Shown here piece after piece: positions 1 to 7,314 of a stretch of 7,314 bases of DNA. The stretch spans positions 1-7,314 of the IMG/VR virus record IMGVR_UViG_2695420687_000001. One strand, given 5' to 3'. How positions within the stretch are numbered: position 1 is the stretch's first letter; each line of letters starts with the position of its first letter. The DNA is from a virus. Lineage: Duplodnaviria > Heunggongvirae > Uroviricota > Caudoviricetes. Position numbers and translations under genes: made by a program. Under the pieces are notes generated by a model. It was not told the origin of the DNA. It was given only the letters and a program-made list of their open reading frames with translations, and made no database searches.

Positions 1-986
1 AGCAGGTGAGCCGTAATTATCATCTGCGCGGGCGTATTCTGCAGGTGCCGTCGAATTATAACCCGCAGACGCGGCAATACAGCGGTATNNAGNANGNCAC
101 TNNNCATTAACGGCAGATTTCTTTCCGATGCAAAGTCGACAGCAGCCTTTGCTTCAGGCGACATATCACCACGAACAGCCCTCGAAACCGCACTCGCTGT
201 ATTTTCCAGCCCCTTACCAATACCACCAATGCCAGCAGAAATTACCGTTTGTAACGGATCAATATCTTCTCCACCAGCAAGGCTGGTGGCTCCCTGTAGT
301 GCTAAATCTGTAGCTGCTGATTTTCCTATGGCACCAAGCACCGTTCCAGCCCTGCCCGCTGGTGTAAACGCCAGCGCATTAGCAAGAAACGAAGTCAGGT
401 CTTGCGGTGATAAACCCGGCTTGTTCAGGGCATAATCACCTGATGGCAGAGAAACGATAGTATTCCCCTTCTCATCCTGCCTTAATGTCGCCCCCATTCC
501 CTGAAGAATCTTTTCCTGAGACGCGTCAGAGCCGAAAAGTTGAGACCATCCAGCCTTCAGGGCATCCATGCTTAGTGAGTTCAATTCTGGGGCAGAGGCG
601 ACATTTTGCAGTCTCTCCATCTCTGGAGTCATTCGGCTTTCGCCTGTTATAGCATCGCGCATCGCAGCCCCAAGACTGGCTCCCTGTTCTGCTGAACGCT
701 CAAGCCCCTCTCTTTGCTGAGTAGCTAACTTTGCATACCCTGACGCAAGAGAATTATCAGATGATGTATGTTGAATATTTTGAGTTGCTGATTGGGATCG
801 GTCTATTTCATTCGTAGATGGTAGTGGATAGGCAGCATAAAAAGCCTGCTTAGCCTGCTCTACACTTTCTCCGGCTTGCGGGGCCACGACTTCATTGAAG
901 TATTGCTCCTGAGCCTGCACTTTTTGTTCTGGTGCTAACGCCTGATACTGTGGAGAGGCGATAACATCTTTCCATGCTTTAGCCAT
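1..986 (-). CDS. Partial CDS (5' part only; 3' end beyond window edge): hypothetical phage protein, possibly P22 gp16-like ejection protein
   Basis: ATG at 986-984 overlaps the stop of the upstream gene (TAATG). I translated the minus-strand frame codon by codon from 986 down to 105 (294 codons, MAKAWKDVIASPQYQALAPEQ…) and found no stop. It then runs into ambiguous bases (89-104) and stays open to position 3, but that last stretch is unreliable. Not in the supplied ORF track, presumably because it has no stop inside the window. Confidence 0.5.
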   Translation of the reverse strand, partial: MAKAWKDVIASPQYQALAPEQKVQAQEQYFNEVVAPQAGESVEQAKQAFYAAYPLPSTNEIDRSQSATQNIQHTSSDNSLASGYAKLATQQREGLERSAEQGASLGAAMRDAITGESRMTPEMERLQNVASAPELNSLSMDALKAGWSQLFGSDASQEKILQGMGATLRQDEKGNTIVSLPSGDYALNKPGLSPQDLTSFLANALAFTPAGRAGTVLGAIGKSAATDLALQGATSLAGGEDIDPLQTVISAGIGGIGKGLENTASAVSRAVRGDMSPEAKAAVDFASERNLPLMXSXXXXTAVLPRLRVIIRRHLQNTPAQMIITAHL

Positions 987-2395
987 TAATCACCCCATAG
1001 TGAAGAAAAATTACTGCTGGCTGCTGGCTGTGATACCTGCTCAGATTGCGGCAATGTCTGCGACGAAGAAGAAGAAGTTCCTCTGTCAACTGCTGAAATA
1101 ACACGCAAAGCATCATAAGCTCGACCAGAAGCAGCTTTCAGCGAATTGAACTGGTTTTCCATCTTCCGGCGCTTGGTATCAATGGTTTTTGTGGAGTCGC
1201 CAGGCTGAGGGAAATACATTTGATAATATTTTGACATTTCAGCAGGTACGATAGCTGCCCCTGTTTCCTGACGGAGTATTGCCATTATTGCGTCATTAGC
1301 ATTAACAACGTATTGCTGCTCTGTTGGGCTGAGCGTTAAGTTAGCCAGCGTCCCATTACCCAAAGCATTATTAATGATCGCCACTCGCTGTGGGCTAAGC
1401 TGGCCTTTCAGTGTATCCATTGAATCAAGAGCATCCCTAACTCTGTATGCAAATCCAGCAGCTTTTTTAGCCCCTTCTGGCGACTTTTCCATGATCTTTT
1501 GGGCTGTTGGCAAAGCTATTGGACGAAACCCATCTCCAGATATTGGCTGGTTTAGTTTTCCCTGCTCTTCACTTCCGTCTGTGTAGTATTTTGTGACAGT
1601 GCCATCATCGTTTTCCCTAACACTCATTAATTTTTTGGCGTTTGTATTAATTCCAGCCGCTGCCCCCTCTGGATCCGCCTTTAACATTTGCGCGTACTGA
1701 TTGTAATTCTGCATTGCGGCTGTTGGTGCATATGCTGACGTTAACGCATTTGCTCGGCTAATATCCTGCCCTCTCGCCTGAAGCGCCTCTCCAGCCTGAT
1801 TGCTGCGGATTGTCTCTGCCAACTTGCCACGCTCAATATCCCGACCTTCCATTCGATCTTTGATATCGAAGTACTTCTCATGACCGAGAGAAAACAGTGC
1901 CATACTACCAGCAAGCCGCTGGAATTCCTGTGGATCATTAACATGCATTTCGGCAACAGACTCAGGAGAAATTCCCAAGCGACGCATTTCATCTTCGTTA
2001 TCTGCTATGAATTTTCCAAATGCCCCAGTTCCGAGCGAAGATGCGATTTGAGCACTAGTCGCAAGATGACCAATAGAATTTCTCTGGTCGTCATCAATAA
2101 AGCCCATCCCTTTCTGAACGCTTTCAAATTCTTCTGGATACTCAGAAATAAGACTGCGCATTTTGTTTCTGTCTCCAGACTCAAAAGCCCCGGCATATGC
2201 TTTCTGAAACTCTGCTTTACGCTGTTGTTGACGTGCCTGCTGATTAATCTCAGCAACGCCTCTTAGCCCCTGTAGCGCCATTAAACCTACGTTTGGCTGC
2301 TGCTGATACTGCACAGGCTGAGGAACGGAAGAACGAGGAGCATTATCATTTTGCGGTGCCATGCTAGGCAGCCCGCCAAGTTGCCATGTCGCCAT
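986..2395 (-). CDS. Hypothetical phage structural protein; putative ejection/internal virion protein (P22 gp20-like, hypothesis)
   Basis: 469-codon ORF coupled at both ends by TAATG overlaps (2395 and 986). Gln/Ala/Ser-rich, with a low-complexity Ser tract near the C-terminus. No resemblance to lambda J. Size is close to P22 gp20 (~471 aa). Functional call is inferred, not verified. Confidence 0.55.
   Translation of the reverse strand: MATWQLGGLPSMAPQNDNAPRSSVPQPVQYQQQPNVGLMALQGLRGVAEINQQARQQQRKAEFQKAYAGAFESGDRNKMRSLISEYPEEFESVQKGMGFIDDDQRNSIGHLATSAQIASSLGTGAFGKFIADNEDEMRRLGISPESVAEMHVNDPQEFQRLAGSMALFSLGHEKYFDIKDRMEGRDIERGKLAETIRSNQAGEALQARGQDISRANALTSAYAPTAAMQNYNQYAQMLKADPEGAAAGINTNAKKLMSVRENDDGTVTKYYTDGSEEQGKLNQPISGDGFRPIALPTAQKIMEKSPEGAKKAAGFAYRVRDALDSMDTLKGQLSPQRVAIINNALGNGTLANLTLSPTEQQYVVNANDAIMAILRQETGAAIVPAEMSKYYQMYFPQPGDSTKTIDTKRRKMENQFNSLKAASGRAYDALRVISAVDRGTSSSSSQTLPQSEQVSQPAASSNFSSLWGD
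1065..1076. repeat. (GAA)4 trinucleotide tract, giving (TCT)n poly-Ser codons on the coding strand
   Basis: Plus strand reads gaagaagaagaa at 1065-1076; on the minus strand it encodes the SSSSS tract near the C-terminus of the 469-aa protein. An adjacent tandem heptamer, ctgctgg x2, sits at 1014-1027. Confidence 0.6.
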
Positions 2396-3072
2396 TAGAA
2401 TCCAAGCCCCCCAACAAGACCAATAAGCCCACCACCAATAGCCCCGGCGACATTACCTATACCCGGAACAACGGAACCAAGTTGCGCACCCGCTAAAGCG
2501 CCTGATGCCGCCCCACCAATACCACGCGCAAGACTGGATGGCTGCTGCGCCTGACCTGCACGAATAGCGCCAAGCCCCTGCAAGAGTTGTCCGGTATTAT
2601 TGGCGTAGTTTTGCCCTGCTGTTGCCTGCCCTGATGCCGCATTCATCCCGACATTTAGCAGGTTTCCATAATTTTGCATTTGCCCACTGAGCCAATTGTT
2701 ATAAAGCATGGGCGCAATGGAAGATAACTGGTTACTGGTAGCTGTTGTGCCAAGCCCCCCGGTAGCTTCTGCTGAGACAAGGTTCTGATAACGGGCCTGA
2801 TCTGCTTGTGTTTTATATAAACCAGAACCAAAGAAATCATTCGCGGCTTTATTCTGCCCTTCCAGAGTCATCAGTCCTTGTAGTTGTTGTAAAGCAGGCA
2901 ATCCGACTTCTGCATACGGCTTGAGATTATTCATCACCGTATTCCACTGCTCGCGCTGCAAATCAATTGCCTGCTGCTGGGCCTTCGCCTGAGCTTTAGA
3001 GGCACCACCATCACCGCCTTTTTCGTATACGGCACGATTGAGATATTTATGAGCTATATGGGTAATTAACAT
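2395..3072 (-). CDS. Hypothetical phage structural protein; putative ejection/internal virion protein (P22 gp7-like, hypothesis)
   Basis: 225-codon ORF with ATG start and a Shine-Dalgarno. N-terminal charged/Gln-rich region, C-terminal Gly/Ala-rich hydrophobic tail (…GIGNVAGAIGGGLIGLVGGLGF). Stop overlaps the next start (TAATG). Not similar to lambda gpI. The functional call rests only on size, gene order and composition; the ORF itself is likely real. Confidence 0.55.
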   Translation of the reverse strand: MLITHIAHKYLNRAVYEKGGDGGASKAQAKAQQQAIDLQREQWNTVMNNLKPYAEVGLPALQQLQGLMTLEGQNKAANDFFGSGLYKTQADQARYQNLVSAEATGGLGTTATSNQLSSIAPMLYNNWLSGQMQNYGNLLNVGMNAASGQATAGQNYANNTGQLLQGLGAIRAGQAQQPSSLARGIGGAASGALAGAQLGSVVPGIGNVAGAIGGGLIGLVGGLGF

Positions 3073-3080
3073 TCGCTGAA

Positions 3081-3086
3081 TTCCTT
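3081..3086 (-). promoter_or_regulatory. Shine-Dalgarno (AAGGAA) for the 225-aa gene
   Basis: Plus-strand ttcctt is AAGGAA on the minus strand, 8 nt upstream of the ATG at 3072, within the 28-nt K-remnant/225-aa intergenic spacer. Confidence 0.4.
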
Positions 3087-3100
3087 ATATTGTTGCCGAG

Positions 3101-3553
3101 TTAACTGATAAAGCGCCACCAGTCATCCTCACGCTCAAAATCCGGCATATCAATTCCCGCCAGATGGTAGGCATCCCGGAACAGCGTGTAACAGTCCGTC
3201 ACCCCGTGCTCAAAGCGCCGTCCTGTCAGATGTGGCACACAGCGGAATTTATGAATTTCCCCCCGGCAGACCAGCCACCAGGACAGTGCACTTTTTATCT
3301 GCAGCCGCCGGTCGGCCTCGCTCAGCCAGGGCAGACCACCGGGATGACTGTGGACCAGTGCCACAATCTCCCCCTGCATCTCTGCCCGCAGCCAGTCTTC
3401 CGGTGCAATACGAAAATACGCCTCCGGCTCTGCAGAGATATTCACACAAGGGATATACCGCTCCCCCTCCGGCGTTCTCACCACGAAGCCGCACGACTCC
3501 GCAGGCGCACACCGCCGGGCATGCGCCAGAATCGCTGATTCTGTCTGTGTCAT
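3101..3553 (-). CDS. K: Tail assembly protein K (lambda gpK-like), C-terminally truncated; likely pseudogene or remnant
   Basis: 150-codon ORF with N-terminus MTQTESAILAHARRCAPAESCGFVV… as in lambda K. The JAMM/MPN motif HSHPGGLPWLSEAD (HxHx7Sx2D) is intact at 3311-3352. The NlpC/P60-type region begins (…GVTDCYTLF…) but the ORF ends at …DDWWRFIS*, about 50 residues short of lambda K (199 aa as I recall). Confidence 0.85.
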   Translation of the reverse strand: MTQTESAILAHARRCAPAESCGFVVRTPEGERYIPCVNISAEPEAYFRIAPEDWLRAEMQGEIVALVHSHPGGLPWLSEADRRLQIKSALSWWLVCRGEIHKFRCVPHLTGRRFEHGVTDCYTLFRDAYHLAGIDMPDFEREDDWWRFIS

Positions 3554-3558
3554 TGGAT

Positions 3559-4257
3559 TTACTGCGAAAGTTTGTTAATGGAAAGGAAACCGCCAAAATT
3601 AACCGCCATGCCGCGCATCTCACACCCGCGCATGCACTTGCTGCATCTGTCCTTACGGATATCGGTGGTGGGTTTATCGAACTCATCCGCCACCGCAGGA
3701 CCGTTATACCCGCATTCATCTCCCCGGTAATCCCACATACAGGTGTTCGCCAGCATGATGCGACCGGGAAACAGCGCTCCGTCCGTCTCCGTCGGTGTTG
3801 CCAGCACAAACGAGGCTGTCATGGCCGTCAGCTCTGACATCTGCTCCACCACCCAGCGGTCGCTCAGCTCCTGCTCCGGGTCCGCTTCCGGATTGCCCGC
3901 CACAAAATTCACCGCATCCAGAAAACAGGCATACACCCGGCGGCGGACCACCGTGGCCCCCACCAGGCTCTGCAGGTCCTCCGCCATTCCGGTGACCAGA
4001 CCGAACAGATTCGACACCGTCAGCGACGGGCGGGCACTGCTGCCCTTCCCGTTCATCTCAAAGCCACTGCCGTCAATCGGGTATACCTGATATTGCCGCC
4101 CCTGCCAGGTGACCGCCTCCCCTTTTTCATTCAGCTCATTACAGAAAAAATACCGCTCACCGCCCTGCACCGTCAGGTCAATTTCCCAGAGCACCACCCG
4201 CGGTGACTGCTCTGATTTAACCGACTCGTTCAGACTTTCTTCATGAATGTCCTGCAT
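3559..4257 (-). CDS. L: Minor tail protein L (lambda gpL-like)
   Basis: 232-codon ORF, the same length as lambda gpL. N-terminus MQDIHEESLNE…VVLWEIDLT…GGERYFFCNE and C-terminus …NFGGFLSINKLSQ closely resemble lambda L from memory. The C-terminal cysteine cluster is conserved (…NTCMWDYRGDECGY… and …DRCSKCMRGC…). Confidence 0.92.
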   Translation of the reverse strand: MQDIHEESLNESVKSEQSPRVVLWEIDLTVQGGERYFFCNELNEKGEAVTWQGRQYQVYPIDGSGFEMNGKGSSARPSLTVSNLFGLVTGMAEDLQSLVGATVVRRRVYACFLDAVNFVAGNPEADPEQELSDRWVVEQMSELTAMTASFVLATPTETDGALFPGRIMLANTCMWDYRGDECGYNGPAVADEFDKPTTDIRKDRCSKCMRGCEMRGMAVNFGGFLSINKLSQ

Positions 4258-4598
4258 CAGTTCACCACCTGCTCAATCGTACAGCTGAAATCACTGTACC
4301 GGGCGTTATCCGTGACGCTCCACTCCCGGCACACCACCCTCACCGTCCGGTTATGTTTCGGCGGTCGCCACAAAAAGGCACGGTAACCACCATGCCAGGA
4401 TAAAAATTCATCCAGCCAGCGCCGGGTTGACTCATCCGTCACCCGGAACACCGCCTGAAACGTCTTCAGTTGAGGATTCAGCCCTGTGGGGCGGCGCTGT
4501 TCATAACCGTCACCAAACCGCACCCTCACCACCGACGGCTTCTCACTCACCTGCATCCCTTCACGCGGGACCAGATGCAGCGTTTTTATCTCAGCCAC
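4257..4598 (-). CDS. M: Minor tail protein M (lambda gpM-like)
   Basis: 113-codon ORF. Internal segment …SVVRVRFGDGYEQR… and C-terminus …IEQVVN are recognisably lambda gpM-like. The start codon at 4598-4596 is GTG, not ATG, and is preceded by a GGAGGA Shine-Dalgarno. It overlaps the 3' end of H by 8 nt, and its stop overlaps the L start (TGATG). Confidence 0.88.
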   Translation of the reverse strand: MAEIKTLHLVPREGMQVSEKPSVVRVRFGDGYEQRRPTGLNPQLKTFQAVFRVTDESTRRWLDEFLSWHGGYRAFLWRPPKHNRTVRVVCREWSVTDNARYSDFSCTIEQVVN

Positions 4599-7206
4599 TC
4601 AGCATTCCTCCGTCACGTCGCATGGACAACATCACCGCCTGCACCCGCTGGTCAATCAGCTGCACAAGACTGCCTGCCGCCTCCGGCCCTATCTGGCCAT
4701 TAGTCCCGTCATTCTGAATGGCGATATGGTAGACCGGGGAATACACCAGGCCCGCACTACCGTTCATACTGCCCACCGCTCGCACACCCAGCGAGCCATC
4801 CGCCGCCCGGGTCAGGGGCATAATGGCTTCAGGACCGGCCTCCCCCATCAGCCCCGCCCCTTTTGCAAAGGCAAAGTACGTGGGCGTATCCACAATACTG
4901 TTGCTGTACGCACTCAGGTTTGCCGAGGTATACACGCCGCCTTTTGCATTGGCCACCGCTCCGCCCAGCCAGTCACCAATGCTGCCAATAAATCCTCCCG
5001 CACCGGACATACCGTTTGCCGCCGTCTTAATTCCGTTGACAATGGCCGCATTCATAAGAACTTTTGATATTTCCTGCAGTACGGATGAGGCCCAGTTGCG
5101 CCATTCCACTTTGTTTCCGTTCAGCATCTCCGTGATGTTATTCACCAGTCCTGAAATCCCCTCCGTTGCCAGCTGTGCTGCCTGTGAGGCGTAATCGGAC
5201 GCATTGTCCACCCAGTTACTGAGCCCCTCCTGCAAGCCTTTCTGCCAGTCCGCACGCTGCGCATCCGATTCGGCATAAAAGGCTGCCTGGTCCTTAAGGC
5301 GTTCGCTCAGATACTGCGCGTTCTGTGCCCGTGCCTGTCTGTAAAAATCCTCACTGATATCCCCGGTCTGATACTGAGACTGAAGGTCCGCATCCTTCTG
5401 GCGGAAGCTGTCGCGGATCTGCTGCAACTCCCGCATGCGTTCCCTGGCTCGTTCTCCCTGCCCGTATCCCAGCAGTTCGGCTTCATTTGATGCACGCGCA
5501 GCCACATTATCATTCTTCAGGGTCTCTTCCCGGGATCGCAACTGTTCCCGGATTTTTTGCTGGTCAATCAGGGCCGCGTTACGCAGCAGTTCCTGCTTCT
5601 GCATCTCCGTCAGGGTTTTCAGTTCGCCCTGCGCAGTCTGGTACTTCAGCTTCGCCAGCTCTGTATTCTGACCCGCCAGTGCCAGTTGCTCTTTCTGCTG
5701 CTTCAGTAGCCGGGAAAAACTGTCTTCCGCTTTTTCCGTCTCTGATTTTCCACCCCGGGATTTGGGTTTATTCGCCTCGTTATTGCGCCAGGCTTCCAGG
5801 GCATTACTGATATAACGTTGTCTCGCCTCCTGATACGGATCACCCACAAAACCGAGGTCATCCGCCGCATACCCCAGCCGGGCACGCTCTTTTTCTTCCC
5901 CTTTCAGTCTGGACAGGGCCAGCTCACGCTCTGTTTTTGTCAGGGCACTCTGCTGTTTATCATCCAGAGTGGCCTGTGGCAGCCGTAACGGCACATTCAC
6001 CAGTCCCTGCCGCTGCTGAAGCAGTTCATTACCCAGCCCCAGCAGACGGTTGAATTCCGTATGCTGACCGTTCATAACCAGCATGGACTGGTACACCTTA
6101 TTCTGCTCTGCCGCCTGCTGACGAATTAACGCCACACGACGGTCTTCCAGCCCGGCAAGCACATCCTGAATGGACTGCGCTTTTTCCTGCATCTGTGCCA
6201 GACGGGACTGCTCAACGGCAAGCTGCTCTGTTGCCTGAGCAAGCCCTTCCGTTACGGTCTTCACCGAGGTCAGATGGTTTATCATGAATCCGTCACCGGT
6301 CGTCCAGCCCGGATTAGCCAGCACATACTGATACCCGGCGATTTTTTCCTGCAGGGATTTCACCCGGCTGGCCTGCTCATCAATCAGCCGGTTCTGCTCT
6401 GTCAGCGCCGCCCGTGTTCGTCCTTCATTATCTGAGGCTTCAGGCAAAGACATTGACGGCGTTTTATGCGCGATTTCATCTATCGTCAGTGCATACTGGC
6501 GCGCAGACTCCCTGGCCTGCTCCTGATTCTGGTACAGCGTGTACCATGCTGCAGCCCCCAGCATCACCAGTCCGGGTACGCCACCAACCAGCCCCAGCGC
6601 ACCGCTCATCAGACGTGAGCCCACCGCCGTTGTACTGTTCAGCGCATTCTGGGCGGCGCTTCTGGCAGCAATATTTCTGTTCAGGCGTTCCTGTGTGGCC
6701 GCCAGACGGGCCTCTGCAGCAATCTGCATCTCCGTCCCGCGGGCTGCCGCCACGGCCTGCTGAGCACGGTACACGGCTGCTCTTGCCCGCGCCGTGGCAA
6801 TCTGCGTTCCCCTGAACTGTGCTTCCGCCAGTGCAACTTCATTACGTGCAGCCGTCACAAGTCCTGCCGTGGCAGACATCGCTCCGGAGGCCATATTGCC
6901 AAAGTACCGGGCCACCCCGACGGCAACCAGTGCCCCCACGGCTGTTGCCACATTATCAATCTGTCCGGCAACACCGTTCAGCACGCCGGAGAGCGTTTTC
7001 GTCACCCCGCTGGCCTCATTCGCACCACCCACCCAGGCCATAAAGGCGTTTTCCACCTTTGTGATCCCGTCAGAGACCGTTTCCGGCATGGCCGCGTATT
7101 CATCACGCAATACCTCCAGCTGGCTGATTAACGCAGGAACGACTTTATCCGCCGTCAGTTGACCATCGTCCGCCATCGCCTTCAGATCTTTACGGGCCAC
7201 GCCCAT
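4591..7206 (-). CDS. H: Phage tail tape measure protein (lambda gpH family)
   Basis: 871-codon minus-strand ORF with ATG at 7206-7204. The C-terminus (…[19 protein letters not shown]…[10 protein letters not shown]) matches, from memory, the conserved C-terminal domain of lambda gpH-type tape measure proteins. Long Ala/Gln/Arg/Glu-rich central region typical of tape measure coiled coils; hydrophobic Gly/Ala-rich segments near residues ~86-120 and ~195-225. Followed by M, L, K in lambda order. An in-frame stop lies 7 codons upstream (7228-7230), so the true N-terminus is uncertain. Confidence 0.9.
4606..4611 (-). promoter_or_regulatory. Shine-Dalgarno (GGAGGA) for M
   Basis: Plus-strand tcctcc is GGAGGA on the minus strand, 7 nt upstream of the GTG start of M; it lies inside the 3' end of H. 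Confidence 0.45.
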
Positions 7207-7314
7207 GCCTGCAGCCAGTGCACGCCTTCAATGACGCGGTACGCCACACGTTGAAAGAAGAAGAAAAACTGGCCAACTCCAGCGACTGGGGATATGACGC
7301 TCAGGCTTTCGCCC

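Follow-up and report, generated by a model that had tools for sequence, protein, structure and literature searches.

Taken together, the alignments favor an interpretation in which the abrupt junction at positions 3113-3115 is very probably a false join, one of three in a chimeric contig, rather than a product of biological recombination. The window analyzed here is the entire contig CDRK01000332.1 (7314 bases), and an exact look-up of the K' protein encoded across this junction, among 153 billion gene positions, returned this one contig only, from the draft assembly GCA_000936005.1. We suggest that the false joins were introduced as a short-read draft genome, probably that of Escherichia albertii, was assembled or was scaffolded and gap-closed, and that the contig strings together a fragment of gpJ, part of an EcCIMP1-type island, part of the tail module of a lambdoid prophage and a fragment of ybjT. 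We favor this reading because three joins between unlinked loci all fall within genes, because one end piece is inverted and ambiguous bases mark the first junction, and because contigs assembled from run ERR738819 continue past three of the breakpoint sides while the junction itself is unique to one assembly. The initial annotation of this sequence had offered two readings, either that unrelated phage modules had recombined or that the contig was misjoined; the breakpoint is confirmed, as is the lack of relationship between the two blocks, and it is the misjoin that is favored and not the recombination of phage modules.

Four pieces and their junctions

The contig comprises a gpJ fragment, a set of P22-type ejection genes, a lambdoid K'-L-M-H' block and a ybjT fragment, separated by three abrupt junctions within 7.3 kb (89-104, 3113-3115 and 7223-7224). 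The pieces on either side of the junctions are each 98.7-100% identical to different, unlinked loci, genes are cut mid-frame at all three, and just 2-3 bases are common to both sources; longer shared sequence at the joins, which might have acted as a k-mer bridge, was looked for in the alignments, and only these 2-3 bases were found. The end pieces are very short, namely 88 bases of gpJ, which are inverted, and 90 bases of ybjT, and all long open reading frames of the window lie on the minus strand. Base composition changes sharply at the central junction, with 48.4% GC on the left (105-3112) and 58.0% on the right (3113-7224), and with third-position GC of 0.39-0.42 to the left and 0.63-0.70 to the right of the break. 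The compositional shift that had been read from hand-sampled lines (45-55% versus 57-70% GC) is thereby borne out.

At the left end, positions 1-88 (plus strand) hold an internal fragment of gpJ that matches the gpJ of many E. coli genomes at 100% identity and whose sense, oriented by its match to E. coli UTME-12, is inverted relative to H-M-L-K. The first putative false join, between this fragment and gp16, occupies a 16-base zone at 89-104 that contains all eight Ns of the contig (89, 90, 93, 95, 97, 102, 103 and 104); no Ns occur elsewhere, including the second and third junctions. Of the eight Ns, seven coincide with disagreements between the gpJ and gp16 sequences, and five of the six positions at which these agree were called (16 bases; one-sided Fisher p = 0.06), as would be expected of a consensus drawn from two different, superimposed sequences. 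These Ns and the junctions at 89-104 and 7223-7224 had escaped the initial annotation.

At the right end, the third putative false join, between H and ybjT, lies at 7223-7224, where the bases CG are common to both sources in an alignment with contig ERR738819_241 of the Logan assembly and an E. albertii contig. It is followed by a 90-base internal fragment of the chromosomal gene ybjT (7225-7314, plus strand), which is of the E. albertii type and only 86-91% identical to ybjT of E. coli; this end of the window shares a 59-mer exactly with E. albertii NBRC 107761 and agrees with it at 91 of 92 bases over 7223-7314. The chromosomal neighborhood of ybjT in the E. albertii type strain is the usual one, syntenic with that of E. 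coli. Because the ybjT piece matches E. albertii far better than E. coli, the organism is, judging from its sequence, probably E. albertii. We also considered the lambdoid piece as an insertion into gp14 and rejected this, as 7225-7314 is ybjT and not gp14.

The difference between an E. albertii-like ybjT (91 of 92 bases) and phage and island pieces that are 98.7-100% identical to E. coli might instead reflect a mixed sample of two strains or species, in which the assembler bridged contigs of different genomes. We give this explanation hardly any weight: prophages and islands are common to E. coli and E. albertii at such identities, which makes contamination unnecessary, and a mixed sample would in any event be a sub-case of an assembly artifact.

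Within the lambdoid block, all on the minus strand, L (3559-4257, 232 aa; Pfam Phage_tail_L, 1.7e-90) and M (4257-4598, 113 aa; Pfam Phage_min_tail, 4.8e-29) are intact minor tail protein genes, and they follow the order of their homologues in lambda. H', the 3' part of the tape measure gene, extends over 4591-7224 with its longest open reading frame at 4591-7206 (871 aa) and matches Phage_HK97_TLTM, Tape_meas_lam_C and TMP_3. Full-length H has 1080 aa in both E. coli UTME-12 and ERR738819_241, and the Pfam and PHROG tape-measure matches to H' begin at profile position about 199; the roughly 200 N-terminal residues are therefore absent, leaving 871 of 1080, a cut that had previously been missed. 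H' abuts the ybjT fragment and is not preceded in the window by genes for a tail tube, a chaperone or the head. The earlier recognition of H, M, L and the first 147 residues of K in lambda order nevertheless holds, with Pfam assigning the four to tape measure, Phage_min_tail, Phage_tail_L and Prok-JAB families, respectively.

The junction within K

When the window is aligned beside P22-type and lambdoid references, lambdoid identity (98.7%) begins at 3113, and identity of the left block to a different locus (99.3-99.5%) runs through 3115; in complete E. coli genomes, that locus matches the window over 105-3112 at 99.0-99.5%. The exact breakpoint, which the initial annotation had left to such an alignment, thus lies at 3113-3115, where GCG is common to both sources and where we place the second putative false join. 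The best matches among 5426 complete E. coli genomes cover only 3113-7224, at up to 98.7% identity, and are annotated there as tape measure, L, C40 peptidase and tail protein; on the other side, the matches to E. coli TUM10008 and to Logan contig ERR738819_105 both stop at 3115.

K' (3101-3553, minus strand, 150 aa) consists of 147 codons of a lambdoid K followed by FIS and a stop codon, read out of frame from gp14-derived bases. Intact relatives of K have 247 aa, carry both PF14464 and PF00877 and read ...REDDWWRNGQNLYLDNM... where the window reads ...REDDWWRFIS and stops; the K of lambda itself has 199 aa. For K', Pfam returns Prok-JAB (MPN/JAB) alone, and the NlpC/P60 (C40) domain expected of K is missing. 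In the lambdoid reference of E. coli UTME-12, the 247-aa K is followed by I and J; after K' in the window come genes matching P22_gp7 and Inj_translocase, and not I and J. The alignment to the 247-aa relatives therefore upholds the earlier description of a K that diverges after DDWWR, ends in FIS and is followed by unrelated genes. The contrary possibility, that a 150-aa K is natural and that the proteins next to it belong to the tail tip, fails on both points, as the relatives are longer and the adjacent proteins are of the P22 gp7 and gp20 types. In our interpretation, the truncated 150-aa K would be a chimeric reading frame that exists only in this contig, and the lack of I and J would be an artifact of the join.

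The 28 bases between K' and gp7 (3073-3100) are not a spacer; they are the 3' end of a gp14/DUF2824 gene. The remnant of this gene (3066-3115, minus strand) comprises the last 16 codons and the stop codon, and ERR738819_105, in which the 153-aa gene is intact, has the identical C-terminus. The sequence LYQLTRQQYKEFSEC and its stop are readable across 3066-3113, and the remainder of gp14 is missing from the window.

The intact K of this isolate was sought by a homologue search, which returned cluster representatives only, all with at least two mismatches to K'. The 90% cluster of K' has 1556 members; apart from K', 14 were listed, all of them fragments of 66-150 aa and most, with few exceptions, labeled partial. 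Because the listed members are of this kind, the K gene seems to be a habitual point of contig breakage in draft E. coli assemblies, and such breakage is consistent with a repeat boundary at which misjoins are likely.

To the left of the junction, again on the minus strand, lie a gp7-type ejection protein gene (2395-3072, 225 aa; Pfam P22_gp7, 8.1e-72; PHROG 598) and a gp20-type ejection protein gene (986-2395, 469 aa; Pfam Inj_translocase, 5.9e-59; PHROG 917), both intact, adjacent, co-oriented and overlapping at 2395. The view that the 225- and 469-aa proteins bear no resemblance to gpI or gpJ is thus correct, and the Pfam matches now place them as P22 gp7 and gp20. They are followed by gp16' (91-985), the 5' part of a gp16 gene of about 298 codons, to which ERR738819_105 is identical except at the Ns; the complete gp16 in that contig has 701 aa and matches Pfam PF26808 (Phage_P22_gp16), and the homologue in E. 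coli TUM10008 is annotated as a P22-gp16 family protein. The gene order of phage P22 is gp14-gp7-gp20-gp16, and neither of the flanking ejection genes is complete in the window, with gp16 cut at about codon 298 by the first junction and gp14 reduced to 16 codons by the second. The exact gp7 protein is widespread, and the gene preceding it is a 153-aa DUF2824 gene in 10 of the 10 other places listed and K in none.

The shared orientation of K' and gp7 and the 28-base gap between them are the only features that would suit a working mosaic, in which a siphovirus-type tail had exchanged the C-terminus of K together with I and J for the podovirus-type genes gp7, gp20 and gp16. Such a phage would have to function with an H that lacks its N-terminal ~200 residues, abuts ybjT and has no tube, chaperone or head genes before it, with a K devoid of its NlpC/P60 domain, with a 16-codon remnant of gp14 at the join and with a gp16 cut at about residue 298, and the arrangement occurs in no phage or genome record searched. 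With truncations in H, K, gp14 and gp16 alike, we regard a functional combination of tail and ejection genes as effectively excluded, and its probability as close to nil.

The search for the junction in other records gave a consistent picture. The 40-base junction sequence, used as an exact pattern, is absent from 185,579 species representatives (one genome each) and from IMG/VR, and searches with the whole window found the two blocks side by side in none of the 5426 complete E. coli genomes and in none of 50,697 phage records.

The contigs of run ERR738819

The exact gp20 and L proteins each occur, among 153 billion gene positions, on two contigs only: the window itself and one contig of the Logan assembly of run ERR738819, namely ERR738819_105 for gp20 and ERR738819_241 for L. 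Because these rare exact sequences are shared, we infer that ERR738819 derives from the same isolate, and most likely from the same reads, as GCA_000936005.1. ERR738819_105 (7575 bases) is identical, except for the Ns, to window positions 91-3115 (3025 bases) and continues past both ends of the ejection block, with an intact 153-aa gp14/DUF2824 gene before gp7 and an intact 701-aa gp16 after gp20. ERR738819_241 is 100.000% identical to window positions 3559-7224 (3666 bases) and runs beyond 7224 into a full H of 1080 aa, preceded by T, tail chaperone, tail tube and head-tail genes; at its other end, it terminates at the stop codon of L, window position 3559. The breakpoint sides covered by the Logan contigs are thus the P22-type side of the first and second junctions and the H side of the third. 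With an intact gp14 through the second junction and a full-length H in these contigs, the proposal of a defective prophage or novel mosaic without I and J is not supported.

The main competing explanation is that the joins truly exist, in this isolate alone, with illegitimate recombination and deletion in a decaying prophage region having fused tail and island fragments into dead remnants. The 2-3 shared bases at the second and third junctions are what illegitimate recombination typically leaves, decayed prophages are numerous in enterobacterial genomes (the gp16 pseudogene of E. coli TUM10008 beside an IS3 element is one example), and the Logan contigs cover the gp7 side of the second junction and not its K side. 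A sister isolate with the ancestral arrangement would, moreover, give the same Logan picture. Real joins would, however, require three independent mid-gene events within 7.3 kb, one of them inverted and one bearing Ns, as well as genuine 88- and 90-base fragments at which the contig ends by chance. In the one further data set with these alleles, the P22-type block and H are intact and 100% identical, and the junction occurs in no other assembly. We further reason that a real additional chimeric copy would create branch points in the assembly graph, at which the Logan contigs would be expected to end; they do not, and show no graph break at the breakpoints. We therefore consider real joins unlikely. 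Were they real, one E. albertii isolate would carry a scrambled locus fusing tail, island and ybjT pieces, a snapshot of mobile elements that had decayed or shattered at multiple breakpoints in the very recent past, though still a dead remnant.

Returning to false joins as the preferred reading, we propose that the ejection genes of the real genome most likely follow the order primase, small ORF, gp14, gp7, gp20 and gp16, and that its tail genes most likely lie in an ordinary prophage module with the order H-M-L-K-I-J, in which K would continue into I and J. Caution is needed in databases and in studies of mosaicism, where the truncated K, the lack of I and J and the apparent fusion of a siphovirus tail to podovirus ejection genes should not be treated as biology. 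The spurious 150-aa K' and an 869-aa H' protein are already present as genes in public protein collections, and the main value of the present analysis lies in flagging this misassembled public contig and the proteins derived from it.

The natural setting of the ejection genes and comparison with known systems

The ejection genes themselves point to a different home. The same genes occur in E. coli 042 (99.0% identity over 3040 aligned positions), within an island of ~19 kb that is bounded by an integrase and located between yicC and dinD, which encodes an antirepressor, an Ash-family protein, a TOPRIM/DUF927 primase, a 53-aa ORF, gp14-gp7-gp20-gp16 and AlpA-like and PerC regulators, and in which capsid, terminase and tail genes are absent. 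The same EcCIMP1-type context, i.e. a position downstream of the primase with integrase, AlpA and PerC nearby and no capsid or terminase genes, surrounds identical or near-identical loci elsewhere; the window itself holds just the gp14'-gp7-gp20-gp16' part of such an island. With these island genes as its natural neighbors, the left block as part of a P22-like prophage was rejected. At least 80% of window positions 1-3112 is present in 176 of the 5426 complete E. coli genomes.

EcCIMP1 is a phage-inducible chromosomal island of E. coli MP1 that is mobilized by phage Kapi1, and the genes downstream of its primase have been described only as hypothetical, showing some similarity to DNA-transfer and DUF2824 proteins (PMC11773190). 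With current Pfam models, the homologues of those genes studied here are P22 gp7, gp20 and gp16. The 225- and 469-aa proteins belong to a described class of islands, the EcCIMP1 type, that carries a full P22-type ejection set, and satellites equipped with ejection proteins of their own may be worth studying. The ejection segment spans 10569-18154 of the E. coli 042 island locus and 9871-18495 of the EcCIMP1 locus, and the MP1 island adjoins tRNA-Thr and proA.

Several further features of these islands were observed. An imperfect direct repeat of about 97 bases (~76% identity) flanks a 7.5-kb segment comprising the 53-aa ORF, gp14-gp7-gp20-gp16 and the AlpA-like gene, at 1-97 and 7490-7575 of ERR738819_105 and at 10569-10654 and 18058-18154 of the E. 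coli 042 island locus; ERR738819_105 ends exactly at these repeats. The length of the gp20-type protein varies among otherwise near-identical islands (408, 439, 469 and 473-475 aa). Because of this variation, and because EcCIMP1 has a different gene at the gp16 position, the ejection module of the islands appears to be swapped piecemeal. In E. coli TUM10008 (locus 163-3882), gp16 is a pseudogene that lacks its C-terminus and lies beside an IS3-family transposase, an instance of real decay in the same island that differs from the break in the window.

As a contig, the window resembles misjoined short-read drafts in its abrupt joins of unlinked loci in multi-copy prophage regions, in the ambiguous bases at one join and in being unique to one assembly and contradicted by an independent one. 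It differs from the usual case in being unusually dense, with three joins in 7.3 kb and ends of 88-90 bases. Compared with the lambda-type H-M-L-K-I-J module of E. coli UTME-12, the H', M, L and 147 K codons of the window are 98.7% identical and in the same order, whereas ~200 N-terminal residues of H and the C-terminal NlpC/P60 half of K are gone and I and J are missing from their place, with the 88-base gpJ fragment inverted at the far end of the window. Similarly, gp7, gp20 and the N-terminal part of a gp16-type protein match the ejection proteins of P22, with the same gp14-gp7-gp20-gp16 order, but this allele set is naturally found in an island devoid of capsid, portal, terminase and tail genes and not in a P22-like prophage. 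Finally, we note that EcCIMP1 has the same neighborhood, consisting of integrase, antirepressor, Ash, TOPRIM/DUF927 primase, 53-aa ORF, DUF2824, 225-aa protein, ejection protein, AlpA and PerC, and is 99.8% identical to window positions 2235-3115, but carries another gp20 allele and, at the gp16 position, a 906-aa protein with a lytic transglycosylase domain. The allele set of the window matches the island of E. coli 042 rather than EcCIMP1.
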